A stretch of 59,145 nt of DNA, the filler included, from Squatina squatina (taxonomy: Eukaryota), in assembly GCA_031763465.1 (NCBI GenBank). It is 3 parts of 3 records of this genome, joined end to end, with 100 filler letters (N's around TTAATTAATTAA, not from the genome) between each part and the next. Parts side by side here need not be neighbours in the genome. Positions count along the whole stretch, not along the records: positions 41,759 to 59,145 come from JARFOE010000121.1; 2 more parts are not named here. One strand, given 5' to 3'. Every line of letters begins with the position of its first letter. Position 1 is the first letter of the stretch. Of the stretch, positions 18,301-59,130 are shown piece by piece. The translations under genes were made by a program, and so were the position numbers. The notes beneath the pieces are model-generated. The model was not told the origin of the DNA. It was given only the letters and a program-made list of their open reading frames with translations, and searched no databases.

Positions 18301-18403
18301 ACCAATGATTTTCCAAGCCCACACTGGTTTCTTCTTTTCACTTTCAGTACAGCAATGAACATAATGTATTGTCATTGATCATTTTTCAATTTTTTACTTG
18401 TAG

Positions 18404-18940
18404 ATTCTGAAGCCCATAGCACAAAGAATTCGTCCTCAGTGGGATGTTGGCATAACTCAAGTGGAAGATGCATTGAGATTGACTCTGGAGGACAGGATAG
18501 CACAGTATACCTTCATTTATGTGGACGAAAAGCCTGACGTATCAGCAGATACGACTCCAACATCGTTGAATCTCGAGGGGAAGAGAAATAGGCGGCTGGA
18601 CACATTGTCCAGTTCTCCACGAGACCAGACAGTGGTGCAGCAGACGGCTCTCGCGGCCCCCGCTGCTCGTGACGCAGGTCAGCGCGCACACGAACGGCAA
18701 GCAGATACCCAAGAGCCTCCCCCTAAAATGACTTGGCGAACAGCCGCAGCTAGAAAATCACTGCCGCCTTCCCTTGCAAACCTCAAAGGGAACCAGGCTG
18801 AGAAACGAAATGGTGGCTGCTCTGACTGTGAGGTGTTGCCAGTAAGAAAAAATGATCAGGTACTTGAAATCCAGGAGAAAGACGCCAATGGGAAATTGCC
18901 TAATAAGCATTTAATTGTCTCTAAGAAGGAAATCACAAGG
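18404..18940 (+). CDS. NSD3: NSD3 exon following PWWP1 (ILKPIAQRIRPQWDVGI…RIAQYTFIY…WRTAAARKSLP…)
   Basis: Matches human IRKPRPQRERAQWDIGI…ERIEQYTFIY…WKTAAARKSLP; 537 bp, phase 0-0, canonical splice sites. Confidence 0.93.
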
Positions 18941-20439
18941 GTAATTATTAAATGATTTTAAAGGGGTACAAAAAGGAAGCATGTGCCATTTGATTGTTTT
19001 GTTCCTTGCTCTACATATTAGCAGACTGTTGATGATTGGTGAACCGTTGTGTGCATGTTGGGCATAAAATCTGCCTAATCCCTGTCAGATTTCATGAAAT
19101 ACTTTAAAGTGGGTAAAGTAGTTAGGTTCTTTTAATTTGTTTGAAGTCCCAATAGCAGCCCACCAGTCACTCTATGTTTGCAAACCCATGGCATCCCATC
19201 GAGAAGCTACTCACTGCACAGCCGCCCCTCACCTGAATTTCATTTTACATTTCCTTGGACCACCTGAGTTTGAGGAAAATGCCTTGACGCTGACGGCCGC
19301 AGTGGGGAAGGAAAATAAAAATAAGAGAGAGTCGGGAATCCCACTTCTGATTGCTCTCGCGTGATTACTGTCCTGTGACGCCTGCCAGAAAATAACTGTA
19401 GGTGTGTGTGCAAGAGAGAGCACGAACAGTGGCTCAGCTCTGCTCTTTTGGAGTCCGGTGGCCTGCTGCAACCGTCTGGGCTTGCATTTAAAGGATTGGC
19501 TACTTGGTGTGAGTTACCAGAGTACAATCAGTACCTGTTCAGCCATGCCCAGCATGCGCCAGCACCTGCAGAAGGTGGGGGCAACTGAGATGGGAAAAAA
19601 AAGATGGAATCTTTCCCTGTATCTGTCTGTTCCTGAGCCTAGAAATTGATGCCTGCCATCTCCTATGTCTATCTGATTGCTGTTGGAGGGCAGGGATCTG
19701 ATGAGCCGTGGTATTGGAAAATCATTTTCTGTACTTTATGAACATCCCTGGTTTAAGTTTCTAAGATCACGTGTGCTGCAACCAGTCAGTATCTGCATAA
19801 TATACACTAACGTAAGACAGAATTGCAGAAATTCTTGCAGGAAGTGCAAATCTCTTCATTGATTAATTGCTTCTTTTAAATTATAATACTCTGTACTTGC
19901 ATACAAATGCTTTATTGGTGGCTGAGTGCCAAATCTTGACGCTATGGCTGGGCACAGCATTATGCTGTGCACCCACCTAGTCCTGGAGCTGCTGATTGTA
20001 TGTTTATGTATCTGTGTTTATCGTGTATACTTGTGTCATGGTTGTCCAGAGTGATGGGATGTTTGCATAAAAATGTCGTATTTTGCTGGTGAATGGAATT
20101 TGTTGTTTTGCAGTGTTCTGTGGGGTGCACACGTGTCTATTTTGGTTTAAATGTTCCACGGANNNNNNNNNNNNNNNNNNNNNNNNNNNNNNNNNNNNNN
20201 NNNNNNNNNNNNNNNNNNNNNNNNNNNNNNNNNNNNNNNNNNNNNNNNNNNNNNNNNNNNNNNNNNNNNNNNNNNNNNNNNNNNNNNNNNNNNNNNNNNN
20301 NNNNNNNNNNNNNNNNNNNNNNNNNNNNNNNNNATTTTCCTTTGCATTGACTTCAAAAGGCTATAGAAAAGGAAAAACGGGCAGAGTGTATAAAGGGTGG
20401 ACGATCTGTTACTGCAATTTTAAGGTAGACAGAAGTTAA

Positions 20440-21030
20440 AAGTTCCACCCTATTATCCGTATTAAATTTCATCTGTGATACTTCTTCCCACCTGCAAATA
20501 TTGTCTAGGTCCTCGGCTGCTTCATTAAACTTGAATGACCCCAAGTTTAGCATCATCTGAAAATCTGAATCATTTTCATAGCTTTTTTGAATGTTAGTCA
20601 CTTTTATATAGATTAGTGACCTCTGGGGCACTTCACTCAGTATGTCTTCCAGCCTGACACTACTCCCCTAATTAGGACGCACTGCTTTCTGACTTTCAGC
20701 CAGTTCCTTATCCATTCCAAAATTTATTTAGGATACCCACTGCCTTGTGCTAATACAGCAATATTTTATGTGGAACTTTATCAAAGTCTGTCCAGGAGCC
20801 AAGATACATTACATCATAGATCTTCCTAATATCCATTTGGGAAATCACTTCCTCAAAAATGTAAAACAAGTTCATCAAGCAGAACCTCCCCCTCCTGAAA
20901 CAGTGCTGGCTATCATTTACTAAGTTATTTTCATAGTCATGTTTCTTCCGGATGATTAGTTCTATTATTTCATGAGTTATTGATATAAGACTAATGGGGC
21001 TATAGTTACCGGGGTTTGTTTGCTGGTTGC
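20440..21030 (-). mobile_element. Old CR1 LINE ORF2 fragment
   Basis: Minus-strand remnants resembling KPGNYSPISLIS, FDKVPHK and WQMKFN-type motifs. Confidence 0.6.
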
Positions 21031-21240
21031 TGATGTCATTGTACCATGGCAGTGCTGCCCTTTAATGACCATCATTTGGAAAAGGACTACTGTTTATCTG
21101 GAACAAATAATTGACTGGGTTAAAAAAAAAAATTGTCTCCCTCTCGTGACTTCCCTTTGGGTTTGGGCTGCCTCAAAAAGGTAAAGCTGAAGGTTGATGG
21201 TCTTGGCTTTGTGTGGGTAATAAAATCATTTTATTCCTAG

Positions 21241-21379
21241 AAGGGAACGAGTATTAAGGCAGAGCCGTCGCCAAGAGAAGTTGACACAGTTCTAATCACA
21301 CCGTTAAGCCTGCGGAGTGAGAAACGGGAAGCGGAGGTGCAGCCCTCTGCACACGGAGAGGCACATCCACTTTCATCAG
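21241..21379 (+). CDS. NSD3: NSD3 exon (KGTSIKAEPSPREVDTVLITPLSLRSEKREAEVQPSAHGEAHPLSS-G)
   Basis: Polypyrimidine-TAG acceptor, CAG|GTAAAT donor, phase 0-1; weak similarity to human GIGNKTEISVRGQDRLIISTPNQRNEK. Confidence 0.72.
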
Positions 21380-21809
21380 GTAAATGCTCATCTTTGTCCC
21401 CATTACTTAAACGTTTTGTATTTTCTCCACTCGCTATTCCTCCGGACTGCAGGCAGGTACTTGACTTCCTCTCTGGTCTCCTGTACTGTCTCTGGAAGTT
21501 GGCTGCAGAGTAGTACATAAAGGATGACTCGTGAGTCAAGTTCCTGCCAAATGTATGTATGCATGCGAGCTGTGTGTTCTTTTATTCAGAGGAGGGCATG
21601 GAACCACCCCAAGCGTGTCCCCATGTTGTTGGCAAGCTTGCTACACTTGGAGGTGTGAGTATAAAGCCATATTGGAACATGANNNNNNNNNNNNNNNNNN
21701 NNNNNNNNNNNNNNNNNNNNNNNNNNNNNNNNNNNNNNNNNNNNNNNNNNNNNNNNNNNNNNNNNNNNNNNNNNNNNNNNNNCTAATGGCCTACTCCTGC
21801 ACCTATTTT

Positions 21810-22800
21810 CTATGTTCTATGAAATATGTCCCAAAGTCTGTCACAGAGAGGCCGAGCCAAAGAAGGTGATATTAGGCGGAGTGACCAAAGGCTTGGTCAA
21901 AGAGTTGGGTATTAAGGAAGGTCATGAAGGAAGAGAGGGAGGTGGAGAAGCAGAAGGGTTAAGCAAGGGAATTACAGTGGGCAAGGCCGAGGGACCTGAA
22001 AGCATGGTAACCAACATTGGGGTGAAGTGAGAGATGCACAGAGGCCAGAGTTGGTAGAACAGATAGTTATGGGGATAGTTTTATCTCCTGCTCCCTTGAC
22101 TTATTTCCATTAACTGCTGACCGCCCAACTTCCCTTCCTGACCCCTCTGCCACCGGCTAGCTGACTGAGTAAATGGTTCTCTCTCCTCAGACTGCCCCCT
22201 CCCTTTCCAAGCTGCCATTATTCCCCACCCCTCCTGAAAAACCCATCTAGTCCCTGCTAACTACCACCCTTATCCAACCTTCCTTACCTTTCCAAAATCC
22301 TTTAATGCCTCTTTAATCCATGCCCATCTAATCCTGGAGTAGTGCATAGTTTTGACAGAGGGGAGTGAAGTCTGAGACTTGATGTGATCAAGGCAGATCT
22401 GGCGATGGATGGCTAAACCAGTTGTGTACCAGCCACACTCAAGTCTGCGTCCCTTAGACTTGAGGGAGTGAAAATGGGGGGGCTGTACCAGGGGTGGTGT
22501 CCAAGATGGGAGACCATAATGGTTTTGCTCAGGAGAAGGGTAGAAAATATGAAGGTGAGGTAATGGTTGAGCAAATCAACAGCAGCAAACGATGTGGCCA
22601 ATGCAGGGCCAAAGGCTAGGCAATTGGGAGCTGTAAGTGACTTGGATGAGAATTTTACCCAGGGATAGAAGCAGAAGGGATTGGGATTGGAAGTGGGTAT
22701 GTGGGTGGGGAGGGACACATGGAAGTAGTCGGAGATGGCCTTGGCAAACATAGGTGTAGAGAGGGCAAAGGAGATGGCAAGGTCAAGATAAGTGGATCGT
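21810..22800. mobile_element. Cluster of L2-type LINE fragments in both orientations
   Basis: L2 3' end on the minus strand (gatattagg…gaccaaaggcttggtcaaagag); NYHP..NLP.LSK-like remnant on plus; PWY-containing remnant on minus. Confidence 0.6.
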
Positions 22801-23118
22801 GGTGAAGTACTTTTGCTTGTGAAGATTCAACCAATCAGAACAGTACAACTGACCTGTTGTGATGGACACATTCAAAGCATGCTGCCCACTTTTCCCAAGA
22901 TTTTTATACACCGGATGCTTCTTTTCTGCTGTTTTGGGTCAGTGACAGACAATGATAGTTCTGGAAAGACTGCATATTTCTGAAGCCGCTCCTGTTTGTA
23001 AATGCATTTGTTCATGAGATTGTTGATCAGAAGTCAGTGTGCCATACGGTTGGCCATGTGTGACGTGGTGATGACCCGTGCTTCTTCGCAGTTGTCCTTA
23101 CCCTGATGTTTGTTTCAG

Positions 23119-23250
23119 GTGGTGGCCAGCGGAGATTTGTAACCCCAAATCCGTGCCACTTAACATTCAAGCAATGAAGCACCATATAGGAGAATTCCCT
23201 GTGCGTTTCTTCGGATCGAATGATTACTATTGGGTGCATCAGGGCAGAGT
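23119..23250 (+). CDS. NSD3: NSD3 PWWP2 exon, truncated by a gap
   Basis: (R)[44 protein letters not shown]; TTTCAG acceptor. Confidence 0.95.
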
Positions 23251-23881
23251 NNNNNNNNNNNNNNNNNNNNNNNNNNNNNNNNNNNNNNNNNNNNNNNNNN
23301 NNNNNNNNNNNNNNNNNNNNNNNNNNNNNNNNNNNNNNNNNNNNNNNNNNNNNNNNNNNNNNNNNNNNNNNNNNNNNNNNNNNNNNNNNNNNNNNNNNNN
23401 NNNNNNNNNNNNNNNNNNNNNNNNNNNNNNNNNNNNNNNNNNNNNNNNNNNNNNNNNNNNNNNNNNNNNNNNNNNNNNNNNNNNNNNNNNNNNNNNNNNN
23501 NNNNNNNNNNNNNNNNNNNNNNNNNNNNNNNNNNNNNNNNNNNNNNNNNNNNNNNNNNNNNNNNNNNNNTTGCCTAAAGACTGCTGTTGAAATCTGTTTG
23601 GATTGAGGAGGAGGAGTTGAAGTGAATGATCGTTCAGTACTCCGAATCTTAACTTGGGTTTCCTCGCTGAGAGTTCGGATGCTGTCGCTCGGTAGTTATT
23701 GAATTCCTGGGAACTGAATCATTACTGGAGTTAGCTAGCTCTGTGTCAGTAAGAACAGTAGACTGTTGGCCAGTAGCTCCCGTAGCAGTAATCCCTTAAG
23801 TTCTACCTATGGTGGCTATTGTATAGAAAGGAGAGGGGAAACTGGCCCCAAATAAAAAATGTTGCTTTCTGCCACTCCTAG

Positions 23882-23994
23882 CACTGGAAGAAGCTGCTAA
23901 ACGATTCCAGGAGCTAAAAGCACTGAAAGAGAGCAAGGAAGCACTAGAAAATGAACGCAACGAGAGAAAGCCACCAGCTTATAGATTCATTAAA
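23882..23994 (+). CDS. NSD3: NSD3 exon (ALEEAAKRFQELKALKESKEALENERNERKPPAYRFIK)
   Basis: Matches human ALEEAAKRFQELKAQRESKEALEIEKNSRKPPPYKHIK; TAG acceptor and GTAAGT donor. Confidence 0.93.
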
Positions 23995-24929
23995 GTAAGT
24001 CCTGTCAAACAATGAAAAGTAAAACTGACCAACAACACTTGAGATTGTTTACATGATTTTTCTGAATAAACTAATTCTTTTAAATCTCACAATTTTTTTT
24101 TTAAATATCATTTTTCACTTTTTTTTCCAATTACTGGTGGCGGCCCAGTTTGGATGAATGTAGAAATGATACAGGAACTGCCTCCAGCACTTTGCCGTAA
24201 CTTTTAATATTAGAATAAATTACATTTGACACTCCTGATTTGACAGCATTTTCTGATGAAAGGTCCATTGACTGGGAAGATCATTTTCAGATCTGAATTT
24301 GCTCACTGAAAATAAATAGGCATTTATTTTGACGTCTCTCAGTGGCGTGCCATTTTTGTTTCGCCCCTCTCCTGTGTGTGCCAGCTCACACTTGGGGTAC
24401 AGTTCCTCAGGGTACTGACGGCCCCAGGACTCCACCTGATTGGCCAATCTTCAGATGTGGGCCCAGCCAATAGCCTAGAAATGAATGTTGGTGATACTGG
24501 GGGAAGAACGCGTCAAGCGTTCAGTTGGCAGCCCCCTCTCTGCTATTTTTTTATGGCGATGTTCCTGTTTAGCATAAATGGTTAATGCTTCCATTACAGT
24601 AGCAGACTGGACAATGTCATGCATGAAGTGTTTGTCCACTAACATTGCTGACATGTCTATATAATCCAGCAGGTCTTCTGAGTCCTGATGAGGCGGCGGG
24701 GCAATTGCAACCCATCTGGATGCTGCCACAGATACTTTTCAGCTCTCGGCAGTGATAAGGCGCAGGGACCTTGGCTCGTTATTTCCCCCCCCCCTCCCAG
24801 CCGAGCCCAGGAAAGCTAAATCNNNNNNNNNNNNNNNNNNNNNNNNNNNNNNNNNNNNNNNNNNNNNNNNNNNNNNNNNNNNNNNNNNNNNNNNNNNNNN
24901 NNNNNNNNNNNNNNNNNNNNNNATCTGCA

Positions 24930-25040
24930 TCCTCACACTCACGTACTTTCACTCACACACACACACGCACACAAAATGCCCACATATATACATATATATA
25001 TATACAAACACACATATGTAACCAAACACACACACTGTAT
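24930..25040. repeat. (CA)n/(TA)n low-complexity tract
   Basis: Direct reading. Confidence 0.85.
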
Positions 25041-25805
25041 TAATAGGTACGGGAGATGTTACTGATCAAAAGTTCCCACCTCAACAACTTACCTGCTGTT
25101 GTAAAAGTAGCTTAACTCTTGTGAAGCTTTGCATAGAAGACTGGCCATCAGACAACCAGCAGTGCTGTGCAGAGGTGTGCCAGATGCAAAGACAAGAAAC
25201 ATCTACCAACATCTGCCTCTTGATGAGTTTCAAGATTAACATCCGAGGGTTAAAACTGAGAGCATCAACAAGAGACTGACAGACATGTTCCACACAGAAA
25301 GTTATTTCACTTTCTGATCCTCCATCATTCTCTCCACCTACGTGACTAAGCTCCAGTTCATGGTAATCCCAGCATTGAATGGCAATGGCAAAAGGGAGCC
25401 TGCAGCAGCTAACAGTTAGACGACTTGGACTAGGGGTAACTAGCTACGAAATGTTGGCAGATGCCTTTGTGGAAAGAGGGCACAAAGCACAGCTACAAAA
25501 GCCTGCAGGTAGCCGCACGTTTGTTCCTTGTGGGTGGGTGAGTGCGAAAAAGTGATGAGAAACCAAAGGGGTATTATCCTGAAAATCATGGGAGCGCTCC
25601 CAGCGAGCAGGTCTCCACTCCGGGAACACCTGTTGATACGATTTACCCTTAAATGTGTAATTGGAGCACTCAATGGTTGTATTCTATTCAGTTAGAAGTG
25701 AAATTCACTTGTACAAGTTGTTCAAGTGCAAGCAACCGTGGCGAAATGGTGACGCATCTGCACAAATAAAATACGGCTCTTCGGCTTGTCTTCTTTCCAC
25801 ACCAG

Positions 25806-26075
25806 ACAAACAAACCAATTGGGAAAGTACAGATCCACGTTGCTGACTTGTCCGAAATCCCACGGTGCAACTGTAAGCCCACCGACGACAGCCCTTGCGG
25901 CCTGGACTCGGAATGCCTAAACCGGATTCTGATGTACGAGTGCCATCCCAACGTCTGCCCAGCTGGAGAACGCTGTCAGAACCAGTGCTTCACCGAGCGA
26001 CTGTACCCCGAGACGGAACTTGTGAGAACAGAAGCACGTGGCTGGGGTCTCTGCACTAAAGTAGACATCAAAAAG
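25806..26075 (+). CDS. NSD3: NSD3 AWS domain and start of SET domain exon
   Basis: [62 protein letters not shown]…RGWGL; 270 bp, phase 0-0. Confidence 0.95.
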
Positions 26076-26090
26076 GTGATTCCTCTTTGC

Positions 26091-26190
26091 NNNNNNNNNN
26101 NNNNNNNNNNNNNNNNNNNNNNNNNNNNNNNNNNTTAATTAATTAANNNNNNNNNNNNNNNNNNNNNNNNNNNNNNNNNNNNNNNNNNNN
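26091..26190. other. Artificial scaffold linker (N44-TTAATTAATTAA-N44)
   Basis: Palindromic 12-mer with stops in all six frames, centred in 100 bp; gene content changes across it. Confidence 0.95.
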
Positions 26191-35074: not shown

Positions 35075-36012
35075 GTAAGCATTTATTTTCCTCTGTACTT
35101 CAGCATGTTTGCAATAATAAACTGAAAATTAAAGATGTGATTTTGTGCTCCTAGCAAGAAGCTGCACTCATTGGAAGCATGGGCTGGAGATAGGGTTACG
35201 TCTCCAATCCACAATTCATGTGAACATGGCTTCCAGCATGAAATGTGGGATTGCAGAAATTGCATATCTCGCTGTTAAAAGATGCTACAGAAGGATTCTT
35301 GAAAGATGATCTCTTTGATTTTAAATAACCTCTTAATCATTCCAGGACCCCTGTCAGCACATACTTCGTCAAAAATGTTAACCGTTTGAAATCTGTTCTA
35401 TTATACACACAATCCTGATTTCTGCCACAGTGCAAAGACATGAGCAGTGTTTGTATATGTTTGTTATAACAGATTTTTAACACCTGATATTGTAGTTCTT
35501 CCACAATTAAAGATTTTGCATATGTATATTGTAATGATGGACTGTGCTGTGGAAAGGTGATGTTCTGGCTGACCTGAGATAAGGGAGCAGGAAGTTGGGT
35601 ATATAATTCAAAATTCAGGAGGTTCTGTGGAGAGAAAAAGAGGAATGGAGACATCAGATCAAATGNNNNNNNNNNNNNNNNNNNNNNNNNNNNNNNNNNN
35701 NNNNNNNNNNNNNNNNNNNNNNNNNNNNNNNNNNNNNNNNNNNNNNNNNNNNNNNNNNNNNNNNNCACACCTGTCCATCTTGGGGAGGTTAATATCATGC
35801 CCTTCAATTCCATTTGATAATTTCCTGGTTATATTAGGTTCATTGAAGTCACTATGATGTACCCTACATGTCCTACTAATGATGGAATGTATTATTGTTA
35901 TCCTTCTCTTGCCCAGTAGAGGGTCGATAACAGATTCCTATCATTTAGCCTATCCTACGCCTATTCCGTTCAGATATGTATCTAGTGTTTATAATTTTTA
36001 TCTATTTTGCAG

Positions 36013-36193
36013 CTTTTTGGACAAAATGTATTTCCTTTCATCTGAAGAAGCTTTGAATAAGTTTGTCTCCAATCCTCGGCCATATCTTCTCCCTCCACAG
36101 CCTTACCCACCTTGTAAAGTTGCAATATTGGGTCCAACGTCTATTGGAAAGACCACTCTCTGCAAATTGATTGCACAAAAATTTGATGCAAAG
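36013..36193 (+). CDS. AK9: AK9 exon with P-loop (FLDKMYFLSSEEALNKFVSNPRPYLLPPQPYPPCKVAILGPTSIGKTTLC)
   Basis: GxxxxGKT motif; human SSEEALKPFLLNPRPYLLPPMPGPPCKVFILGPQYSGKTTLC. Confidence 0.94.
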
Positions 36194-36550
36194 GTAAAAT
36201 GATGCACAGCTCCTTTCTATGCCATGTGGTTATTATGTACAATTTATCCACTTATATATTGATTTACTTGTAACTTTGTTTGCAACAGCGTTGACGCCCA
36301 TTATCAATGTCTCTTTGAGGCCCCTCTTCTAGGTGAGAATTTAGGTATCTTGATAATCATGACCACCTCTTTCTAGCAGCCAATTTACGGAGGCATGGAA
36401 TTAGTCACAAGTGAGACTAGCAGATTTGAATATCGAGCAGCTCTGTGATTNNNNNNNNNNNNNNNNNNNNNNNNNNNNNNNNNNNNNNNNNNNNNNNNNN
36501 NNNNNNNNNNNNNNNNNNNNNNNNNNNNNNNNNNNNNNNNNNNNNNNNNN

Positions 36551-36760
36551 GAAGATCTGGCTCAGAAAAAGAACAGGCAGATGGGCGAAAGTAAACATTA
36601 CTGCCCTGTGGCTTTAAAAGAAAATGTAGTTATTTTTCCAGGTGATCGAGAATGTGCTGCTAGGTATCGAGAAAAATACTATTATTTTTCTAATCCAGAT
36701 GCTCGATCGAAGTTTTTACAAAATCCAGAAGACTATATAAATAAAACAGAACCTCTAAAG
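36551..36760 (+). CDS. AK9: AK9 exon, 5' end in gap (…GESKHYCPVALKENVVIFPGDRECAARYREKYYYFSNPDARSKFLQNPEDY…EPLK)
   Basis: YHS-like repeat; human GDTKHFCPVVLKENFILQPG…AKYREKIYYFSS; GTAATG donor. Confidence 0.92.
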
Positions 36761-39619
36761 GTAATGATCTTTGAATAGTAATCATCTTCTGCAATAGGAA
36801 ATGCATTAGTTAATCTAAACTTTTACCTTTCACTCAATTGTCCTATTTTATCAAATTTATAATATATTTTAAAAAAAGCCAAGTACTCAAACCTATTGTA
36901 TCCTTGCCAGCAAAAATGCTTTAATAAAATTAAATAGCAATTGCTTCTGTAACAATGTTCCTTATAAATCTTTCATATTACTTTTAAATTTCACTAGCTT
37001 GCACATTATACTTAAATAGAGTTAATCTGACATTGGTAAGATTTTACAGAATACGCAAGAACAGTTATAAGTAACATTCATAATGTTACGGAGATGGATA
37101 ATGCTTTGTTAGGTAATGGTCATCAAGGGATTATGAGCAAATCGAGTGGATGTTCAGCCATCATCTAATTGAATGGCTCGACTCGCTTAATGGCCTACTC
37201 CTGTTCTCATGTTAACTAACTGCAAATATCAGCACTTCTTAAAATATGGCTGATGAAGAGCCAGTCAATTTTGTTACAGCTTCACTCCATCCACAATATT
37301 ACCTAAAGCATATAAATGATTTGAGCTTGCAAACATCAAATTGATAACGTAATTGCATGGTTAAAGGCATGCTATTTTAGTGGAATAAAATGTTAATTTG
37401 AAGATTGTATAGCATGTGAAAATTATAGTAAATCTAATTTTAGTGAATAATCTGTAAAAGAAAACAAAAATATGTATTGGTGACATTTTATTCACACACT
37501 TCCAACTGAACTAAATTTGGCATGCATAAAATATCTATTTAATTCTAAGCAGCATGCCTAACCTTCTGGCACCGGTGTCACCCAGGTTGGTTAAATGAAT
37601 GTAGTGAGACTTCCCTTTAAAATTAAGATATATAAATAGAGGGTTCTGCACCACTCAGGCCGAACACTATTTGATAATCGGTAGTCAGTAGTAGTAGTAA
37701 TAGACAGCCTGTGACAAGCTGCTTCTCTCTATCTCCATAGAAGCAGTCTCTCTGTTAGTTCATTAGCGTTCACTTTCTTCTATGGGAACCGTTGCATAGT
37801 GGACACAGAGGAGTTGTCCCAAGAGCTCCAGGAGCTATTAGGACAGGGAGTTAGGGTACTGTGCTGGTTTGTGCAGTAGCCAGTTGCAGGCAGAGAAAAG
37901 TGTCACTTAATTTAGTGCCCAAGTTCAGAAAAAGGCAAGAGTGAAGCCAGCTCAGTTATCGTCATTCGTGTTTACGGTGGGTTGAGANNNNNNNNNNNNN
38001 NNNNNNNNNNNNNNNNNNNNNNNNNNNNNNNNNNNNNNNNNNNNNNNNNNNNNNNNNNNNNNNNNNNNNNNNNNNNNNNNNNNNNNNAGTCTTCACTTCC
38101 ACCTTCTCAACTGATGCCCACAGCTGCTGCATTTCACCTCAACAGGTGCAAGTTACCCCGGGTGCACTAACATTGTAGGTCCAGGAAACCCCCATGCACA
38201 GTGCCACTGGCAATCAGGCAGCCTCATGTAAATGAGGCCACCGGTGACTAGCAGGAGAATTGCGGAATGGCTCCAGGATTGCAAGGAATGTCTTCCATGC
38301 AAGTTTCCTCACTGGAGAAATTTCCATTGCTGTTCTAGAACAACTCAAGAGCTGGGAACGGTGAGGAAATTCATTTAATGACAAAATGCTAAAAGCTGGA
38401 TCTTAGCAGAACAAAAAAAAAACTTTGTGAACAGTATGCTTGTATTTAACATGTGTATTTGTAATAGTTCAGATATGCGGCACTGAGTCCAACCAATGTT
38501 TCAGTGCATTGTAACGTCAACAAAGGGGTAGAATCTGACTCTGTGTTCACAACTGTCCATATGATCAACTCCTAGTCACAGCTAAGCTAAGGAAAGAATT
38601 TTCACTCAGTAAGAGCTTTACTCTGCTTACAATACAAGTGCAACAATGTTGTTCTGAAAAGTGGAACCATCAAGAACAAATTTGGAATTATGTTCTGGAC
38701 ATCACTGTAAGGATCCAGCTGCTGGAATTAATATCTTATTGACTACAATGTAAAGGCAATAATAAGAATTGTTCTACCATTATATTGCACATCAAGATTC
38801 ATGACTAACAGTATAATTACAGTTCATAACTCTGTAACTACATTGTTATTAATGAAATAGGTTTCAAAGTGCTTGAATAATTTTAGCCACATTTAGATAC
38901 ATCGTCAATAAAGATACAAATTAATTTGCATTCCTTTATGTAAACTTATGAAAATTATTGCTATTCAGAGAAGTGTGCAAAAATGATGTAGAATTGCTGA
39001 AGATCATCAATATGTTACTGGACTTTGTGGCGAAATCTTTTTTTTAATAAACTACAGCATAATGTTCATCTACAACCGATAAATATCTACCTCCAGAGAC
39101 GACGAACAAGGATTCAGCCTTGGGGTGACTGAAAAACAACTGTAACAGGAAGCAGCATGCGAGTTGTCAGAAGCCTGGATGTAACCCCAGGGGACATAAA
39201 CCTACAGCTCAGAAATGCCCTTAACTCAACAGTGATCAGCTCTAGAGAGATATGAGCACTTAGAAACCACAGCCATCACTTACTAACACACAGAGGTATG
39301 TTCTAAAGTAGAGGGATGAAAATGTAAGAATAAATTTTTACCAAGGTATTTACAAAGCCTGATGACCCATTCTACTCCTGACATATCAGCACTGTCATTT
39401 GTTTCTTTCACACTTAACCAGTCATTTAATGCATTTGAGCAGATGTAAGGCACTATTTTTATCGACAAGTAGACTTCACAATTGGTACAATGACAATTTA
39501 CACACAACTTATTTGTAATGACTGCAGATGTAAATTGACCAATTCACCAACTATCATTAGTAAACAACATTATTGGCTTCCTAGCTAACATAAAAAATGG
39601 GCTAAAATGCAATTGACTA

Positions 39620-41658: not shown

Positions 41659-41758
41659 NNNNNNNNNNNNNNNNNNNNNNNNNNNNNNNNNNNNNNNNNN
41701 NNTTAATTAATTAANNNNNNNNNNNNNNNNNNNNNNNNNNNNNNNNNNNNNNNNNNNN
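41659..41758. other. Artificial scaffold linker (N44-TTAATTAATTAA-N44)
   Basis: Identical construct to 26091-26190. Confidence 0.95.
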
Positions 41759-42225: not shown

Positions 42226-43016
42226 CTTGTTTGAGGTAGAGATCTCGTATTGCTGCCTGGTAAATCTTCATCTCGCCGGCCATCATGTCTCTGATCTCCT
42301 TGCGTTGACTGACTTGTCGACAGTTGCACTCAATCACCCCGGTATAGCTGCACAGACAGATCTCACAGCCGTACTCAAAAGACTCTCCAAAGCGGTATGA
42401 GCGACCATGAAAGGTGCAGCCACAGCTCTGGCCACAGGGGACGTCCTCACACCTTCGGCCTGGTCTGAAGCTGACCACTTCTCTCCTCAGGTCAGCTCGA
42501 TTGATGGCCTGGCAGTGAGAAGATGGCAGATATTCACAGTGATACACATAGGCTGCGCAGAAGCCAAGATAGTTGAAGCCCTCACGGTTGATCCCAACAC
42601 AGTCAAACTGGGCTCGGTTGTAACCCTCCGCATTGAATCCAGCCGCATCAAACTCCCCTCGGAAATCGTGCTCCCCTTTTTTGTTGTGTCCCGTGAGGTT
42701 AAACCCAGTTACCTTGTGGAACCCATCCCGGTCGTACCCCTGTTTGTCGAACCCATACTTGTCAAACTCTCGCCCGTCACTCAGGCCACTGAAGACCTGC
42801 CCATTTGGCCCAAACAGCGCAGGCCCAGAACGCACGGGGTTAAACGCCACCACCTGCCTTCCAGTCCGGTCCAGGCTGGACATGTTGTATCCGTAGCGAT
42901 CATAGCCTTCGTGGTCATAGCCAATCAGAACGTTGGTCAGCTTTGGCTGGCGGAAGCAGCAAGCTCCGACCTCACATCGCCTCTTACATTCCTCGTGCGT
43001 TTCAAAGTTGTTGCTG
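42226..43016 (-). CDS. Large exon (5' end in gap) of an uncharacterised modular protein: Kunitz C-terminus, GACC Cys module with G[YF][DN]xx repeats, VWC, start of a tyrosinase-like domain
   Basis: Open frame of at least 263 codons: SNNFETHEECKRRC (Kunitz end), GACC, GYDHEGYDRYGYN…, CTFHGRSYRFGESFEYGCEICLCSYTGVIEC (VWC), RKEIRDMMAGEMKIYQAAIRDL; CAAG|GTATGG donor. Confidence 0.85.
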
Positions 43017-43116
43017 NNNNNNNNNNNNNNNNNNNNNNNNNNNNNNNNNNNNNNNNNNNNNNNNNNNNNNNNNNNNNNNNNNNNNNNNNNNNNNNNNNNN
43101 NNNNNNNNNNNNNNNN

Positions 43117-45920
43117 AGAGTCAGTACCTGATCCAGTGAGAGTCAGTACCTGCCCCCAGTGAGAGTCAGTACCTGCCCCAGTGAGAGTCAGTACCTGATC
43201 CAGTGAGAGTCAGTACCTGCCCCAGTGAAAGTCAGTTCCTGATCCAGTGAGAGTCAGTCCCTGATCCAGTGAGAGTCCGTACCAGCCCCAGTGAGAGTCA
43301 GTCCCTGATCCAGTGAGTCAGTACCTGATCCAGAGAGTGTCAGTACCTGCCCCAGTGAGAGTCCGTCCCTGATCCAGTGAGAGTCAGTACCTGATCCAGT
43401 GAGAGTCAGTACCCACCCCCAGTGAGAGTCAGTACCTGGCCCCAGTGAGAGTCAGTACCTGCCCCATTGAGAGTCAGGACCTGCCCCCAGTGAGAGTTAG
43501 TACCTGGCCCCAGTGAGAGTCAGTACCTGATCCAGTGAGAGTCAGTACCTGCCCCCAGTGAGAGTCAGTACCTGCCCCAGTGAGAGTCAGTATCTGATCC
43601 AGTGAGAGTCAGTACCTGCCCCAGTGAAAGTCAGTCCCTGCCCCAGTGAAAGTCAGTACCTGATCCAGTGAGAGTCAGTACCTGCCCGCAGTGAAAGTCA
43701 GTACATGATCCAGTGAGAGTCAGTACATGATCCAGTGAGAGTCAGTCCCTGATCCAGTGAGAGTCAGTACCCGCCCCAGTGAGAGTCAGTAACTGATCCA
43801 GTGAGAGTCAGTACCTGCCCCAGTGAGAGTCCGTCCCATATCCAGTGAAAGTCAGTACCTGATCCAGTGAGAGTCAGTACCTGATCCAGTGAGAGTCAGT
43901 ACCGGCCCCCAGTGAGAGTCAGTACATGATCCAGTGAGAGTCAGTACCTGCCCCCAGTGAGAGTCAGTATCTGCCCCCAGTGAGAGTCAGTATCTGCCCC
44001 CAGTGATAGTCAGTACCTGCCCCCAGTGAGAGTCAGTATCTGCCCCCAGTGATAGTCAGTACCTGCCCCCAGTGAGAGTCAGTATCTTCCCCCAGTGAGA
44101 GTCAGTATCTGCCCCCAGTGATAGTCAGTACCTGAACCAGTGAGAGTCAGTGCCTGCCCCCAGTGAGTGTCAGTACCTGATCCAGTGAGAGTCAGTACCC
44201 GCTCCCAGTGAGAGTCAGTACCTGATCCAGTGAGAGTCAGCACCCGCCCCCAGTGAGAGTCAGTACCTGGTCCAGTGAGAGTCAGCACCCGCCCCCAGTG
44301 AGAGTCAGTACCTGCCCCCAGTGAGAGTCAGTACCCGCCCCCAGTGAGAGTCAGAACCTGTCCCCAGTGAGAGTCAGTACCCGCCCCAGTGAGAGTCAGT
44401 ACCGGATCCAGTGAGAGTCAGTACCTGCCCCCAGTGAGAGTCAGTCCCTGATCCAGTGAGAGTCAGTACCTGATTCAGTGAGAGTCAGTACCTGCACCCA
44501 GTGAGAGTCAGTCCCTGATCCAGTGAGAGTCAGTCCCTGCCCCCAGTGAGAGTCACGCCCTGATCCAGTGAGAGTCAGTCCCTGATCCAGTGAGAGTCAG
44601 TACCTGGCCCCAGTGAGAGTCAGTACCTGCCCCATTCAGAGTCAGTCCCTGATCCAGTGAGAGTCAGTACCTGATCCAGTGAGAGTCAGTACCTGCCCCA
44701 GTGAGAGTCACGCCCTGATCCAGTGAGAATCAGTACCTGCCCCATTGAGAGTCAGTACCTGATCCAGTGAGAGTCAGTACTGATCCAGTGAGAGTCAGTC
44801 CCTGCCCCCAGTGAGAGTCAGTCCCTGATCCAGTGAGAGTCAGTACCCGCCCCAGTGAGAGTCAGTCCCTGATCCAGTGAGAGTCGGTACCTGCCCCAGT
44901 GAGAGTCGGTACCTGCCCCAGTGAGAGTCAGTCCCTGATCCAGTGAGGGTCAGTACCCGCCCCCAGTGAGAGTCAGTACCTGCCCCCAGTGAGAGTCATT
45001 CCTTGATCCAGTGAGAGTCAGTCCGTGATCCAGTGAGAGTCATTACCCGCCCCAGTGAGTCAGTCCCTGATCCAGTGAGAGTCAGTACCTGATCCAGTGA
45101 GAGTCAGGACCTGCCCCAGTGAGAGTCAGGACCTGCCCCAGTGAGAGTCAGTACCTGATCCAGTGAGAGTCAGTACCTGATCCAGTGAGAGTCAGTACCC
45201 GCCCCCAGTGAGAGTCAGTACCCGCCCCCAGTGAGAGTCAGTACCCCCTCCCAGTGAGAGTCAGTACCCGCCCCCAATGACAGTCAGTACCTGCCCCCAG
45301 TGAGTGTCAGTACCTGATCCAGTGAGTGTCAGTACCTGCCCCCAGTGAGAGTCAGTACCTGATCCAGTGAGAGTCAGTACCTGATCCAGTGAGAGTCAGT
45401 ACCTGCCCCCAGTGAGAGACAGTACCTGCCCCAGTGAGAGTCAGTACCTGATCCAGTGAGAGTCAGTACCTGCCCACAGTGAAAGTCAGTCCCTGCCCCA
45501 GTGAGAGTCAATACCTGATCCAGTGAGAGTCAGTACCTGCCCCCAGTGAGAGTCAGTACCTGCCCCAGTGAGAGTCAGTCCCTGATCCAGTGAGAGTCAG
45601 TACCTGCCCGCAGTGAGAGTCAGTACATGATCCAGTGAGAGTCAGTACCCGCCCCCAGTGAGAGTCAGTACCCGACCAAGTGATAGTCAGTACCCGCCAC
45701 CAGTGAGAGTCAGTACCTGATCCAGTGAGAGTCAGTTCCCGCCCCCAGTGAGAGTCAGTCCCTGATCCAGTGAGAGTCAGTACCTGATCCAGTGAGAGTC
45801 AATACCTGCCCCAGTGAGAGTCAGTCCCTGATCCACTGAGAACCAGTCCCTGATCCAGTGAGGGTCAGTACCCGCCCCCAGTGAGAGTCAGTACCTGCCC
45901 CCAGTGAGAGTCATTCCTTG
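43117..45920. repeat. 22-23-bp minisatellite CCAGTGAGAGTCAGTACCTG(AT/CC/CCC), at least 2.8 kb
   Basis: More than 100 tandem units, bounded by gaps on both sides. Confidence 0.97.
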
Positions 45921-46252
45921 NNNNNNNNNNNNNNNNNNNNNNNNNNNNNNNNNNNNNNNNNNNNNNNNNNNNNNNNNNNNNNNNNNNNNNNNNNNNNNNN
46001 NNNNNNNNNNNNNNNNNNNNACCACTGGGGTTTCCCTCACTTCATGTTTGGGTCTGTTGTGGACTAATTGTTAGAGATTGATTGCTATGATTAGTCAACA
46101 ACTCCATTATCATCATATCGTGACTCTACCAGGATGGAGAAAGGTAAACTAGATGGACCTTTTATTGTCTCGTAATTCCGATGCTTCTAAGACACGGTCA
46201 GGCTAGTAACCTGTCGCAGAAAGCCTTTGAAGGGGGTTTGTGCTGCCATTAC

Positions 46253-46643
46253 CGTGAACTTGCTGTCTCGGTTTCCTTCAGTGCTGGAGAAATGAATCTC
46301 CAAGTCAATGGGGAGAATCAGACTGATGGCATCGTCGCCCATGTTTTTCTCAAATACGATGTCTTCCTCGCAATCAATGAGAAGCGTTATCTTCTGCGCC
46401 TCCAGGTTGAAGGCCACCCTGCCCCATCGCCCGCTGCCAAATGGAGTTCCGCCAGGGAAGACAATGGACGCTGGCTCCATGTTGTGCACAGTCCGATAAT
46501 CCAGCCGGAGCTGGTTGCTTCTGGTGCTGGACACAAGCTGGAGAAGTGGCCGCCCATCCTTCTTGGTGGTGGTTGGGGAGGTGAAGGAGATCACTGTCCC
46601 TTCCGAGTTCCTGCTCTGCTTCGCCACAAAGTGGAAACCGATG
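46253..46643 (-). CDS. LamG/thrombospondin-N (TSPN) domain exon, 5' end in gap; probably the same gene as 42226-43016
   Basis: IGFHFVAKQSRNSEGTVISF…NQLRLDYR…PFGSGRWGRVAFNLEAQKITLLIDCEE…SKFT fits the TSPN pattern (GxW[H]RVAxxxxxxxxTLxxDC); ACG|GTAATG donor. Confidence 0.8.
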
Positions 46644-46743
46644 NNNNNNNNNNNNNNNNNNNNNNNNNNNNNNNNNNNNNNNNNNNNNNNNNNNNNNNNN
46701 NNNNNNNNNNNNNNNNNNNNNNNNNNNNNNNNNNNNNNNNNNN

Positions 46744-47788
46744 TGTGTTAATCTCTCTCTAACACTCACTCCCTGTGTTCATCTCTCTCTAAACCTCAGT
46801 CCCTGTATTAATCTCTCTCTAACCCTCACTCCCTGTGTTAATCACTCTCTAACCCTCACTCCCTGTGTTAATCTCTCTCTAACCCTCATTCCCTGTGCTA
46901 ATCTCTCTCTAACAATCACTCCATGTTAATCTCTCGCTAACCCTCACTCCGTGTGTTAATCGCTCTGAAAAATCATTCCTTGTGTTAATCTCTCTCTAAA
47001 TCTTAATCCCTGTGTAAATCTCTCTCTAACCCTCACTCCCTGTGTTAAACTCACTCTCTCCCTTACTCCTTGTACTAATCTCTCTCTAACCCTCACTCCT
47101 GGTGTTAATCTCTCTCCAACAATCACTCCCTGTTTAAATCTCTCTCTAACCATCACTCCCTGTGTTAATCGCTCTCGAACACTCACTCCCTGTGTTAATC
47201 TCTCTCTCTAACCCACACTCCCTGTGTGAATCTCTCTCTGACCCTCACTCCCTGTGTTAATCGCTCTCTAACCCTCACTCCCTGTGTTAATCTCTCTCTA
47301 ACCCTCCCTCCCTGTGTGAATCTCTCCCTAACACTCACTCCCTGTGTTAATCGCTCTCTTTCCTCACTCCCTGTGTTAATCGCTCTCTAATCTTCACTCC
47401 ATGTGTTAATCTCTGTCTAAAATTCAGTCCCTGAGCTAATCTCTCTCTGACACTCACTCCCTGTGTTAAACTCTCTCTCTCCCTTACTCCCTGTACTAAT
47501 CGCTCTCTAATCCTCACTCACTGTGTTAATCTCTCTCTAACCCTCACTCCCTGTGTTAATCTCTCTCTAACACTCACTCCCTGTGTTAATCTCTCTCTAA
47601 CACTCACTCCCTGTATTAATCACCCTCGAACCTTCAGTCAACGGGATATTCTCTCTCTGAAACTCACTCCATGTGTTAATCTCTCTCTAAAATTCAGTCC
47701 CTGTGTTAATCTCTCTCTGACACTCACTCCCTGTGTTAATCTCTCTCTAACTCTCAACCCTGTGTTAAACTCTCGCCCTCACTCCCTG
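46744..47788. repeat. ~30-bp minisatellite CTGTGTTAATCTCTCTCTAACCCTCACTCC
   Basis: About 35 tandem units. Confidence 0.97.
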
Positions 47789-47888: not shown

Positions 47889-50552
47889 CTATTAACAGGG
47901 ACTAGATTTAGGATTATCAGGGACACAGATTGAGGATTATCAGGACATAGATTGAGTATTAACAGGGACTAGATTGAGGATTATCAGAGACACCGATTGA
48001 GGATTATCAGGACATAGATTGAGTATTAACAGGGACACAGGTTGAGGATTATCAGGGACACAGGTTGAGGATTATCAGGACACAGATTGTGTATTAACAG
48101 GGACACAGATTAAGAATTATCAGGGACACAGTTTGAGGATTAACAGGGACACAGATTGAGGATTATTAGGGTTGGAGATGGCGGACCATCAGGGACACAG
48201 ATTGAGGATAATCTGGGGCACAGATTGAAGATTACCACAGATGCAGATTGAGGATAATCAGGGACACAGATTGAGGATTATCTGGGACGCAGATTGAGGG
48301 TTATCAGGGACACAGGTTGAGGATTGTAAGGGACACAGATTGAGGATTATATGGGACACAGGTATAGGATTATCAGGAACACCGATTGAGGATTAACAGC
48401 AACACAGGTTGAGATTATCAGGACATAGATTGACTATTAACAGGGACTAGATTTAGGATTATCAGGGACACAGATTGAGGATTATCAGGACATAGATTGA
48501 GTATTAACAGCGACTAGATTGAGGATTATCAGGGACACAGATTGAGGATTAATAGTGTTGCAGAGTGAGGACTATTATGGACACAGATAGAGGATTAACA
48601 GGGGCACAGATAGAGGATTAAAAGGGAAACAGATGGAGGATTATCAGGGACTCAGATTGAGGATTAATAGTGTTGCAGAGTGAGGACTATTATGAACACA
48701 GATAGAGGATTAACAGGGGCACAGATACAGGATTAACAGGGGCACAGATTGAGAATTAACAGGGCCACAGTTTGATGATTAACAGGGGCACAGATGGAGA
48801 ATTATAAGGGACACAGATTGAGGATTATGAGTGAAACAGATAGAGGATTAAGTGGAATGCAGATTGAGGATTATCAGGGACACAGGTTGAGGATTACCAG
48901 GGACACAGCTTGAGGATTATCAGGGACACAAGTTGAGGATTACCAGGGACACAGATTGAGCGATAATACGGTCACAGCTTGCAGATTATCAGGCAGACAG
49001 ATTGAGGATAATCAGGGACAGAGATTGAGACTTATCAGGGAAACAGATAACATATTAACTTGGACACATATTGAGGATGATCAGCTACAATGTTTGAGTA
49101 TTTATAGGGTCACAGATTGAGGACTATTAGGGACACAGATAGAGGATTAACAGGGGCACAGATTGAGGATTATCAGGGGCACAGATTGAGGATTATCAGG
49201 GGCACAGATTGAGGATTATCGGGGGCACAGATTGAGGATTATCAGGGGCACAGGTTGAGGATTATCAGGAAACAGTTTGCGGAATATTTGGCACAGAGTT
49301 TCAGTATGATCTGGGACACAGATGGAGGATTATCAGGAGCACAGATTGAGGATTACAAGGAAACAGATTGATGATAATCATGGTCACAGATTGAGGATTA
49401 CCAGGGATTCAAATTGAGAATTATCAGGGAGTCAGATTGAGGATTATTAGGGACACAGTTTGAGGATTAATAGTGTCATAGATTTAGGAATATTATGGAC
49501 AAAGATTGATGGTTATCAAGGACAAAAATTGAGGATTATCAGGGACACAGATTGTGGATTATCGGGGCAAAGATTGAGAATTATCAGGGAGACAGATTCA
49601 GGATTATCAGGATGAAGTTTGAGGATTATCAGGGACACAGATTGAGGATGATCAGGATCACAGTCAGTAGATGACCAGTGACACGGAATGTAGATGAACA
49701 GGGACACAGTTTGAGGATTATCAAGGACACAGATTGAGGATTATCAGGGACACACATTGAGGATGATCAGGATCACAGTCAGTAGATCACCAGTGTCACG
49801 GAATGTGGATGAACAGGGACACAGATTGAGGATTATCTGGGACAAACTTTGAGGAATATCAAGGACAGAGATGGAGGATTATCAAGAGACAGTTTGAAGA
49901 ACTTCCGGGACACAGCTTGAGGATTATAAGGATAAAGGTTGATGAATTTCAGGGACATAGATTGAGGTTTATCAGGGCAAACATTGAGGATTATCAGGGA
50001 CACATATTGAGGATGATCAGGATCACATCTTGTGTATCACCAGGGACACAGAATGAAGATTAACAGGGACATAGTTTGAGGATTATCAGGGACATAGATT
50101 GAGGATTATTAGTGATACAGAAGGAGGGATATCAGGGAAAAAGTTTGAGGAATATCAGGGATAGCGATTGCAGCTTATCAGGGACACAGATTGAGGATTA
50201 TCAGAGACACAGATTGAGTATAATCAGGAAACAGGTAGCAGAATATCTGGTGCAGAGTTTCAGGATTATGTGGGACACAGATGGAGGATTTTCAGAGACA
50301 CAGATTGAGGATTATCAGGGACACAGCTTGAGGATCATCTGGGGCACAGATTGAGGATTATCAGGGGCACAGATTGAGGATTATCAGAAAACAGTTTGCG
50401 GAATATCTGGTACAGAGTTTCAAGATTATCTGGGACACAGATGGAGGATTATCAGGGTCACAGATTGAGGATTATCAGGGATTCAAATTGAGAATTATCA
50501 GGGAGTCAGATTGAGGATTATTAGGGACACAGTTTGAGGATTAATAGTGTCA
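47889..50552. repeat. ~23-bp minisatellite CAGGGACACAGATTGAGGATTAT with higher-order blocks
   Basis: More than 100 diverged units. Confidence 0.97.
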
Positions 50553-57346: not shown

Positions 57347-59130
57347 CAACTAACGCAGCAGACAATGTCACATCACAAAGCTCAGACACAGAGCTGGAAC
57401 AGGACCTCACTAGCAATAGCTCCAAGGGACATTCTTGTCCTGGTAATAGACCCAATGAAACATACACATTAGCCTCTGAACTAGGAGTGAATACTGAGGT
57501 TGAAGCTGATCAGACCTTTGCTGCCACTAGTAAATGCTTATCATCATCTAACCTTAGCAATGGCTCCTGTACTCCTGTGTCTGATGCAGAGTTAGAACTC
57601 GAGTTTGGGGTTGAGTTTGGGAGCAAGATGCACAGACCACACTCGGAGCAAATGGCTTTTGTGCCACCTGTTCCCGAGAGAATGAATTTGAAGACCGCTG
57701 CCACCACTGCAATGGGTTCTTCCACTCCCAACTTGGCCTCAGAGTTGGAACACAATCACATCACACACGTGACTACTGCTGACTACGCGCAGCCATCTAG
57801 TTCCAATAGTGAATCAGCATCTCCTTCCTCTGACCCAGGCATCGTGGCAGATCTCACCAGTAAGAGCAGCAAGAAATTTATCCAGTCATACCAAAGTGAG
57901 GATGGTGGGTCCTCTGGTTCTGACTCAGAATTGGAAGAACTGGAAGAAGGACTTACATGTGAAAACAGTGCTGCATGCAACATGATTTCTTCCATCTCTG
58001 AGACAGAGTTAGACCTTACCAGTGAAAGCAGCAGTGGTAGGTCATCACACCTAACCAATTCAATCGAGGAAGCAAGCTCACCCAACTCTGATCATGAGAT
58101 TGACTGGGAAGGAGAAATCAGTACTGGAAGTGTCAAAGATCGATTGTACTTGGTAAAGACGGCCAACAATACCAGTGTTGATTCTTTGGAACCAGTTAAC
58201 GAATGGGGCCTTGGCAGTGGGTATACAGGGAGATTACTCTGTGCGGTGGATGAAACCAATTCAGACATTTCTGCCAGAGACTTGGAGTCGGAGCTAATAA
58301 CTGGGTCTTTGCCTGACCAAACTAAAGACCAGGTTACTTCACCACAAGCTTCAGAGTTCCAACCAGATAGTAAGAGTGAAGGTACCAGGCCAACATATCT
58401 TGATATTATACCAAATCAAGCAATAACTCGAGCTCCAAGTCCTAAATTACAAACACAAGAGAATGCTGAAGAGAACAGTGATGATGAACTGAGTAATGAT
58501 TCAGAGTCTTCATGTTCTGATCATGATTCAGACCCTGATCTGAGTGAAAGTTCTGACTCTCCTTGGCTCCTCAGTAACATGGTCAACACAATGATTTCAC
58601 AAGGATCCCACAACGTCAAAGATGAGTGTTGGTTGCAGACTAATTCATTCAGTGAAACCGTTTCCTCATGCTCTGACATTGAGATCGAGCCAGTCAGTGT
58701 CAGCGAGCTACTGTGCACTTCAGGCCCTCAATTTAACTCCGGCCAAGAAAGCTCTGAAAATGCAGATCTTTCCCATCCTGAATTAGACATTGAGATAATG
58801 GACAGCAATGATGATTTTGGTGACTTAATGTGCTCTGAAGATGAAGCGAAAGGAAAAGGGACAAGCACTGAAATAGTGAAGAGAGCAAAGAGAAGAAAAG
58901 AAGATCTTCTGAAACTAGAGCTGAAGATCATGATCGACGACACAAGGAGCTTAAGGAGCGTGGGCCTTGTGATGGATAGCGAGAAAATCGACAAAAGAAA
59001 GAGCTTGGTCAGGAAGGCAGGGTTGAATAAATGGAAAGGAAACACAGAGGGAGAAAAGACAAAGGGCGGCCAATTCGAGGTAAAACTTCCAGTGCGAAGT
59101 CGGCGCAAAACAGCCATAAAGGCACTTTAG
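57347..59130 (+). CDS. MAPK8IP2: MAPK8IP2 (JIP2/IB2) large central exon, 5' end in gap; homology fades after ~58840
   Basis: [46 protein letters not shown] and [27 protein letters not shown] match recalled human JIP2 blocks. Confidence 0.88.

Follow-up and report, generated by a model that had tools for sequence, protein, structure and literature searches.

Two exons in the genome of Squatina squatina raise the question of which gene they belong to and whether its product is an oxidase. The exons, here called A and B, lie on the minus strand of a stretch of 59,145 nucleotides (the window; assembly GCA_031763465.1) that is a chain of gapped scaffold pieces with 38 runs of N, and both are within its third piece (JARFOE010000121.1). 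The first-pass annotation of this DNA took them for parts of an uncharacterized gene, with no human ortholog, encoding a secreted matrix protein that carries its own phenol oxidase and a protease inhibitor and could tan the egg capsule. Here, we find that the exons are part of kielin/chordin-like (kcp), and we consider it likely that shark kcp encodes a noncatalytic cassette of preanimal descent.

Both exons are sound as first described. Exon A has an open frame of 130 amino acids and a donor ACG/GTAATG (the slash marks the exon end; GT at 46252-46251), and exon B has an open frame of 263 amino acids, which carries the peptides quoted earlier, and a phase-1 donor CAAG/GTATGG at 42225-42224. 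Their 5' ends are lost in gaps at 46644-46743 and 43017-43116, respectively. That they belong to one gene, kcp, is near certain. The Chiloscyllium plagiosum (bamboo shark) protein XP_043569143.1 holds exon A (117 of 130 residues identical) and exon B (232 of 263) in the expected order, and both exons are also within one Scleropages (arowana) model. Because the two exons occur in the right order in one related protein, the match is not due to chance, and the linkage proposed across the gaps stands. Identity to shark KCP models, which are about 3,100 amino acids long, is 89 to 92% for exon A and 88 to 90% for exon B, with Heterodontus KCP the nearest relative of both (92% and 90%), and exon A is 55% identical to Xenopus tropicalis Kielin. 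A search with exon B gave 44 matches, and the three full-length animal ones were from bamboo shark, acorn worm, and arowana. The proposed profile search on both translations was weak: with window fragments, nothing in Pfam exceeded the cutoff (LamG at an E value of 0.08 for exon A and no match for exon B), and PDB sequence searches gave only E values of at least 0.047. A NELL/collagen TSPN identity for exon A was ruled out (E values, 0.19 to 0.29).

The wider protein has the form of Kielin. A search with the first 355 residues and a lower length limit of 1,706 residues (the N-terminal search) returned 71 proteins, all of them long VWC-array proteins and most named kielin or KCP. The Hemiscyllium protein XP_060698749.1 is 60% identical to X. 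tropicalis Kielin over 2,206 columns and has, in regions outside the window, 26 VWC stretches, a VWD at 2764-2912, and a PF00264 (tyrosinase) domain. It is secreted, with an N-terminal TSPN and a coiled coil before VWC1, as in the nonmammalian form, and this shark ortholog has a long VWC array and then a single VWD. Shark KCP is indeed a secreted protein with TSPN/LamG, Kunitz, and repeat modules, as first proposed. Kielin of Xenopus and KCP of mouse and human, the kielin cysteine-rich BMP regulator, are described as enhancing BMP and suppressing TGF-beta/activin (PMC6750614, PMC10315795). Mammalian KCP is given as 18 cysteine-rich domains plus a VWD (PMC10315795), and loss of KCP is reported to cause valve defects (PMC6750614). 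The claims of an uncharacterized gene and of no human ortholog both fall, because the gene is already named and its Xenopus laevis form is reported to be syntenic with human KCP (PMC6750614).

Shark KCP shares TSPN, coiled coil, VWC array, and VWD with frog and mammalian Kielin/KCP but has, in addition, an insert of about 880 amino acids that follows VWC1 and holds EGF and Kunitz domains, two blocks of repeats, and a tyrosinase fold. In the gene models, this cassette sits in frame between VWC1 and VWC2, in the order EGF, Kunitz, G[YF][DN] repeat domain, half-VWC, tyrosinase fold, further repeats, and Cys-rich end. Pairwise alignments show one in-frame insert: residues 367-1261 of Latimeria (895 amino acids) are absent from a 2,232-amino-acid Latimeria model, and residues 393-1284 of Huso (892 amino acids) are absent from Polyodon isoform X2. 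The Hemiscyllium cassette spans residues 394-1270. The in-frame position between VWC1 and VWC2 is shared by models from shark, ray, chimaera, sturgeon, coelacanth, newt, brachiopod, and octopus, and kielins with the cassette occur in brachiopod, octopus, horseshoe crab, amphioxus, crinoid, hagfish, sharks, sturgeon, coelacanth, and newt. Among the 71 proteins of the N-terminal search, PF00264 is found in 12, namely, Hemiscyllium (twice), Heterodontus, Hemitrygon, Rhinoraja, Stegostoma, Callorhinchus, Latimeria, Huso, Pleurodeles, Prochilodus, and Myxine, and in none of the 18 reptile, two frog, two caecilian, and one lungfish models.

The domain that follows RKEIRD is a true member of the tyrosinase family. 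In the C. plagiosum protein, PF00264 matches residues 748-916 with an E value of 8e-26 (92 bits against a cutoff of 22.6), and the fold is kept: a model of the whale shark protein has a pTM of 0.81, and its best Foldseek matches are bacterial tyrosinases (E value, 6e-14; TM, 0.70 to 0.75 by target). When the tyrosinase-fold domain was searched against the full library, the best match among the best 150 of 5,067 was Hemiscyllium kielin/chordin-like isoform X2 (3,102 amino acids), followed within the same 150 by kielins of Lingula, Argonauta, Arapaima, Limulus, Branchiostoma, and Anneissia, which have 22 to 33 VWC stretches, a single VWD, and PF00264 once or twice.

The copper sites, by comparison with an annotated Streptomyces tyrosinase (His38/54/63/190/194/216, numbered as in PMC6312201), are not kept. 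With the first CuB position read four residues ahead of the second, the six ligand positions in sharks are R/K-N-H-S-H-Y. All nine chondrichthyan sequences retain only the third CuA and the second CuB histidine and have lost the other four: CuA is R/K, N (C in chimaera), and H, and CuB is S, H, and Y, so that neither has the three histidines it requires. An intact CuA or CuB was found in none of 58 KCP-type domains, many of them close teleost relatives, which keep no (6 domains), one (21), two (20), three (10), or four (1) ligand histidines. The same procedure applied to control domains found six histidines in 108 of 135, and HMMER alignments to hemocyanins agree with the Streptomyces mapping on the replacements. 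In a plant polyphenol oxidase (PPO), a CuA His-to-Ala change is reported to leave one copper and no activity (PMC4364613). The downstream search for CuA and CuB histidines thus recovered the predicted tyrosinase domain in relatives, with neither site intact, and the claim that the protein carries its own phenol oxidase fails because four of six copper histidines are absent in all chondrichthyans examined. On these residues, we conclude that the KCP-type tyrosinase domain has very probably lost oxidase activity and is a pseudoenzyme.

Even so, the domain is strongly conserved. The framework motifs FLPWHR, GGxM, DP-F, and Asp+4 are kept, as is a seven-residue spacing from the first to the second CuA position. 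The shark tyrosinase domain is 73 to 76% identical to that of coelacanth, sturgeon, and newt; in the same comparison, two VWC blocks are at 48 to 50% and 64 to 65%, and the VWD is at 82 to 83%. As its identity is above that of the VWC blocks and below that of the VWD, the domain is under constraint.

The six-Cys Kunitz scaffold is sound (PF00014, residues 442-498 of the C. plagiosum protein; E value, 9e-17), but inhibition of a protease is unsupported because the P1 residue and loop length vary. P1, placed as in BPTI directly behind the second Cys, is Lys in both carpet sharks and skate; in other sequences it is Asn, Ser, Gly, Thr, Arg, Pro, or Glu, and the loop is three to six residues longer in KCP than in choanoflagellate copies. 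G[YF][DN] repeats number nine in exon B and 24 in shark KCP, and there are none in the Xenopus or Pogona models. The exon B structure model has a pLDDT mostly of 80 to 93 outside residues 57 to 79 and shows the repeats without regular secondary structure. Fold searches with it gave no PDB match to the repeat domain at an E value of 0.001 or below or at a Z score of 5 or above, and nothing usable came from two feature searches of the ESM Atlas; a missing PDB match is no proof of a new fold. The nearest Pfam model to the repeats, PF25296 (Decapeptide), is below the cutoff. Finally, the VWC module first called in exon B is VWC-like, or fibronectin type I (FnI)-like, but is only a half module of 34 to 37 amino acids with weak structural matches (Z scores, 3.7 to 4.7; root mean square deviation of the match with the best Z score, 2.1 over 41 residues).

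The other 41 of the 44 matches to exon B were not counted as homologs, since only the repeats matched, at 29 to 51% coverage; most are unnamed or bacterial helicase- or exonuclease-linked proteins. We note that long G[YF][DN]xx runs occur at the N terminus of bacterial helicase- and exonuclease-domain proteins (P0006 to P0046) and that no solved structure of the G[YF][DN]xx repeat fold was found.

What a disarmed tyrosinase does in a BMP regulator may be considered in several ways. We favor a role in binding or spacing. The full product would be about 3,100 amino acids, with a signal peptide, TSPN, coiled coil, VWC1, the cassette, about 25 more VWC, the VWD, and a Cys-rich tail. Its VWC array would bind BMP/TGF-beta family ligands as reported for frog and mouse KCP, and the four-helix bundle of the cassette, its dicopper site lost, may act as a folded noncatalytic binding or spacer module that most likely docks the BMP-binding arm onto matrix or a partner protein. 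We lean slightly toward this putative docking or spacer role. Alternatively, the old pocket may have been remodeled into a sensor, in which the equivalents of His63, His194, His200, and His215, with Tyr216 and Arg38, would bind a single metal ion or a phenolic ligand and tune the effect of Kielin on BMP. At these residues, no variation or almost none is seen in 13 of 13 chondrichthyan, sturgeon, coelacanth, newt, and arapaima sequences, the domain is more conserved than the VWC repeats, and the histidine before the third CuB ligand is said to assist CuB binding (PMC11803259). The equivalent of His194, however, is Arg or Gln in most teleosts, which thus lose one further ligand, six domains lack any ligand histidine, and His200 and His215 are nonligands in the Streptomyces reference. 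We regard the sensor as unlikely.

An oxidase that tans the egg capsule, as first proposed, would account for the true tyrosinase fold, which is nearer the bacterial and hemocyanin types than TYRP1 (E values, 1e-24 and 6e-4), and for the Tyr-rich repeats. Moreover, VWC-only "kielin-like" proteins are described as abundant in argonaut eggcase matrix (bioRxiv 2021.07.10.451900). Against it stand the four lost ligands in nine of nine chondrichthyans and the variable P1 (K, N, S, G, T, R, P, or E) and lengthened loop of the Kunitz domain. The cassette is found also in teleosts, newt, hagfish, and invertebrates, including animals without tanned egg capsules, and no tie to the oviducal gland was found. 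Together with the 27 PPO genes of Callorhinchus, which could supply such activity (PMC11803259), these points make the oxidase very improbable. Those Callorhinchus milii genes, as counted in PMC11803259, are in themselves a better place to look for egg capsule catechol oxidase.

The cassette might also be a gene of its own, nested within a kcp intron and fused to kcp by gene predictors only. Many teleost models have a Trp-stop directly after the cassette and show it as a stand-alone, "uncharacterized" protein with 720 to 840 amino acids. Yet the in-frame position between VWC1 and VWC2 recurs from sharks through brachiopod and octopus, the stand-alone models mostly begin at a Met that lies inside the Kunitz domain or shortly behind it and show no signal peptide by eye, and models from cod and Metynnis join the cassette to the TSPN start. 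We think a nested gene improbable. Rather, the teleost models suggest a short form without the VWC array, for which a true terminal exon or read-through would both fit; used as the protein end in this way, the cassette would yield a product that lacks the BMP-binding array. In coelacanth, arowana, and arapaima, models with and without the cassette coexist, which suggests alternative splicing, and as both ends of the cassette are in one frame, skipping of it would give a frog-type Kielin.

Several points weigh against the favored explanation of a shark kcp with a noncatalytic cassette. The evidence for architecture comes from gene models throughout, and only a few records from short contigs suggest spliced transcripts (P0057, 742 amino acids on 4.7 kb; P0252, cassette-less, 2,386 amino acids on 9.9 kb). 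The cassette-less Rhincodon and Acipenser models hold cassette fragments and are assembly or annotation artifacts, and thus skipping and loss may be overstated; among the 71 matches of the N-terminal search, none was a shark model that lacks the cassette and comes from a good assembly. With fewer than 1,706 residues, mammalian KCP fell outside that search. The active-site exons of Squatina lie outside the window, and ligand loss there is deduced from relatives that are 82 to 92% alike. Three or four pocket-side histidines are invariant in the 13 sequences named above, with a Tyr and an Arg/Lys near the old pocket also fixed, and such histidines are left unexplained by a purely structural role. 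Finally, the outgroup of the tree described below was drawn from the best 150 of 5,067 matches plus one Streptomyces protein, and cnidarian and sponge kielins were left out.

The origin of the cassette points to single-celled relatives of animals. With the ligand columns removed, a fast IQ-TREE run with SH-aLRT support was made on 79 sequences (29 of 58 KCP-type, 7 of 8 choanoflagellate-type, and 43 of 135 others), after a first FastTree run from which 4 of 205 extracted domains were dropped for low coverage. KCP-type domains form one clade (SH-aLRT, 97.3) with the choanoflagellate type as its sister (97.5), and FastTree gave 0.96 for each. The KCP clade has two subgroups: brachiopod, clam, octopus, spider, and acorn worm models have a tandem pair, and vertebrates have the second only. 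Five of the eight sister domains are named choanoflagellate (Salpingoeca/Hartaetosiga), and six histidines are kept in five of the eight and in three of the five named as choanoflagellate. Choanoflagellate proteins (Salpingoeca rosetta XP_004987702.1, XP_004992948.1, and XP_004991800.1; S. urceolata; Hartaetosiga) share the module order of the cassette, that is, Kunitz, GACC domain with repeats, half VWC, tyrosinase, repeats, and Cys-rich end. They differ in having mostly six histidines, a Kunitz loop of canonical length, Kazal/TIG domains, and what by eye is a membrane anchor at the C terminus in place of the VWC array and VWD. The simplest reading, with direction set by parsimony and a bacterial root, is that an active preanimal module was recruited into Kielin and then disarmed. 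The Kunitz-repeat-tyrosinase module, which choanoflagellates still have with copper sites mostly intact, would have joined Kielin no later than the bilaterian ancestor, and tandem duplication and ligand loss would have followed, perhaps in that order. Vertebrates would have kept one tyrosinase copy, and frog and reptile models lack the cassette.

The choanoflagellate proteins deserve mention in their own right. S. rosetta XP_004987702.1 and XP_004992948.1 (P0091 and P0097) and an S. urceolata protein (P0092) are surface proteins with a six-His tyrosinase beside Tyr-rich repeats and a Kunitz domain, and we speculate that they are candidate self-cross-linking or adhesion enzymes; our literature search found no paper on them. 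Among hemocyanin-like proteins (P0087 and P0080), some have single units with copper histidines lost.

Among known type 3 copper proteins, the KCP domain resembles the alpha subclass (Aguilera 2013), or the short-spacing types a to f of PMC11803259, in its PF00264 match, four-helix fold, and secretion and is unlike it in lacking any intact copper site (0 of 58). Vertebrate TYR, TYRP1, and DCT (gamma subclass, type g) share the fold superfamily but keep the two-metal site that the KCP domain does not, and KCP is distant from TYRP1 (6e-4, against 1e-24 for Streptomyces tyrosinase) and has no transmembrane helix. Ascidian Tuphoxin, compared by its description (PMC9395347), is likewise a chordate secreted protein with an alpha-type tyrosinase domain and extracellular modules; unlike KCP, it keeps the copper histidines, has TSP1 and cupredoxin-like partners, and is not a Kielin. 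Alpha-subclass proteins are reported as absent from arthropods, hemichordates, echinoderms, and cephalochordates, as well as chordates (Aguilera 2013, PMC3658974). In the open-access literature found, neither the cassette nor its ligand loss is described beyond a passing remark in PMC11667028 on spiralian tyrosinase sequences of more than 3,000 amino acids with a kielin/chordin-like domain. The chordate PPOs listed as "d type or unclassified" in PMC11803259 may include KCP-type domains, and the word "kielin" is absent from the text of its supplement.

Features of the kcp locus and its scaffold end in the window are as follows.
Feature	Positions	Strand	Remarks
Concatenation linker	41659..41758	.	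44 N, six-frame-stop word, 44 N; scaffold piece ends there
kcp exon A, TSPN/LamG second half (N-terminal domain of Kielin)	46253..46643	minus	Residues 95-224 of shark KCP
kcp exon B, inside the cassette of about 880 amino acids	42226..43016	minus	Residues 484-746 of shark KCP
Kunitz domain, C-terminal 15 residues	42971..43015	minus	Reactive loop falls in gap; helix 7-15 in model
GACC-opened small Cys-linked domain with nine inserted G[YF][DN] five-residue repeats	42428..42970	minus	From repeat count and structure model
Half VWC/fibronectin type I-like module	42317..42427	minus	Weak alignment of model residues 197-237 with FnI and vWC structures
Tyrosinase-fold domain (probable pseudoenzyme), first ~30 residues	42227..42316	minus	Remainder beyond scaffold-piece end
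Intronic 22-bp satellite, 125 copies	43117..45913	.	Between exons A and B; one gap just past it

No other kcp exons were found within the window, and those for the linker, coiled coil, VWC1, EGF, and most of the Kunitz domain (residues 225-483) are presumably in the flanking gaps. Besides the intronic satellite (43117-45913), long satellites lie at 46744-47774 and 47891-50543 (units of 22, 30, and 23 bp), and the three arrays flanking the kcp exons probably account for fragmentation of the gene in the assembly. A linker of identical artificial design (N44, stop word, N44) lies at 26091-26190; the two are among the N runs counted above, and as they join unrelated scaffolds, gene order across 26091-26190 or 41659-41758 is meaningless. 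Thus, genes to the left of 41659-41758, where the scaffold piece ends, are not neighbors of kcp. In the first scaffold piece are C-terminal TACC exons (105-592, minus strand) and PWWP/AWS exons of an NSD-type histone methyltransferase (15839-26090, plus strand), a pairing that we take to be ordinary vertebrate synteny. Exons with P-loop and YHS-like segments at 35858-36778 (plus strand; weak Pfam matches only, to P-loop and FAP206/YHS) are, we presume, probably adenylate kinase 9. Upstream of kcp on the opposite strand, a Ser/Glu-rich open frame of 593 amino acids at 57349-59130 (plus strand) has no Pfam match and may be a JIP/MAPK8IP exon from its resemblance.

Functional work on KCP has been done in frog and mouse, whose forms are seemingly reduced, and most animals appear to have a Kielin about 900 to 1,900 residues longer, with an insert that has no described function. 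Because the tyrosinase domain was already seen in the automatic annotation of public models, the surprise is limited, and what shark kcp represents is a known gene in an ancestral form that is apparently undescribed. The KCP cassette corrects the published picture in which vertebrates and several other phyla lack an alpha-type tyrosinase domain. Were Kielin instead a BMP regulator with a built-in sensor, its tyrosinase turned into a one-metal or phenol pocket that is spliced in, out, or last, which we doubt, then the long, frog-type, and truncated forms would link the metal or redox state of the matrix to BMP/TGF-beta output, and frogs and amniotes would have retained only the skipped form. 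Ultimately, the cassette offers a type 3 copper family pseudoenzyme conserved across bilaterians, with a probably active choanoflagellate sister for direct comparison.

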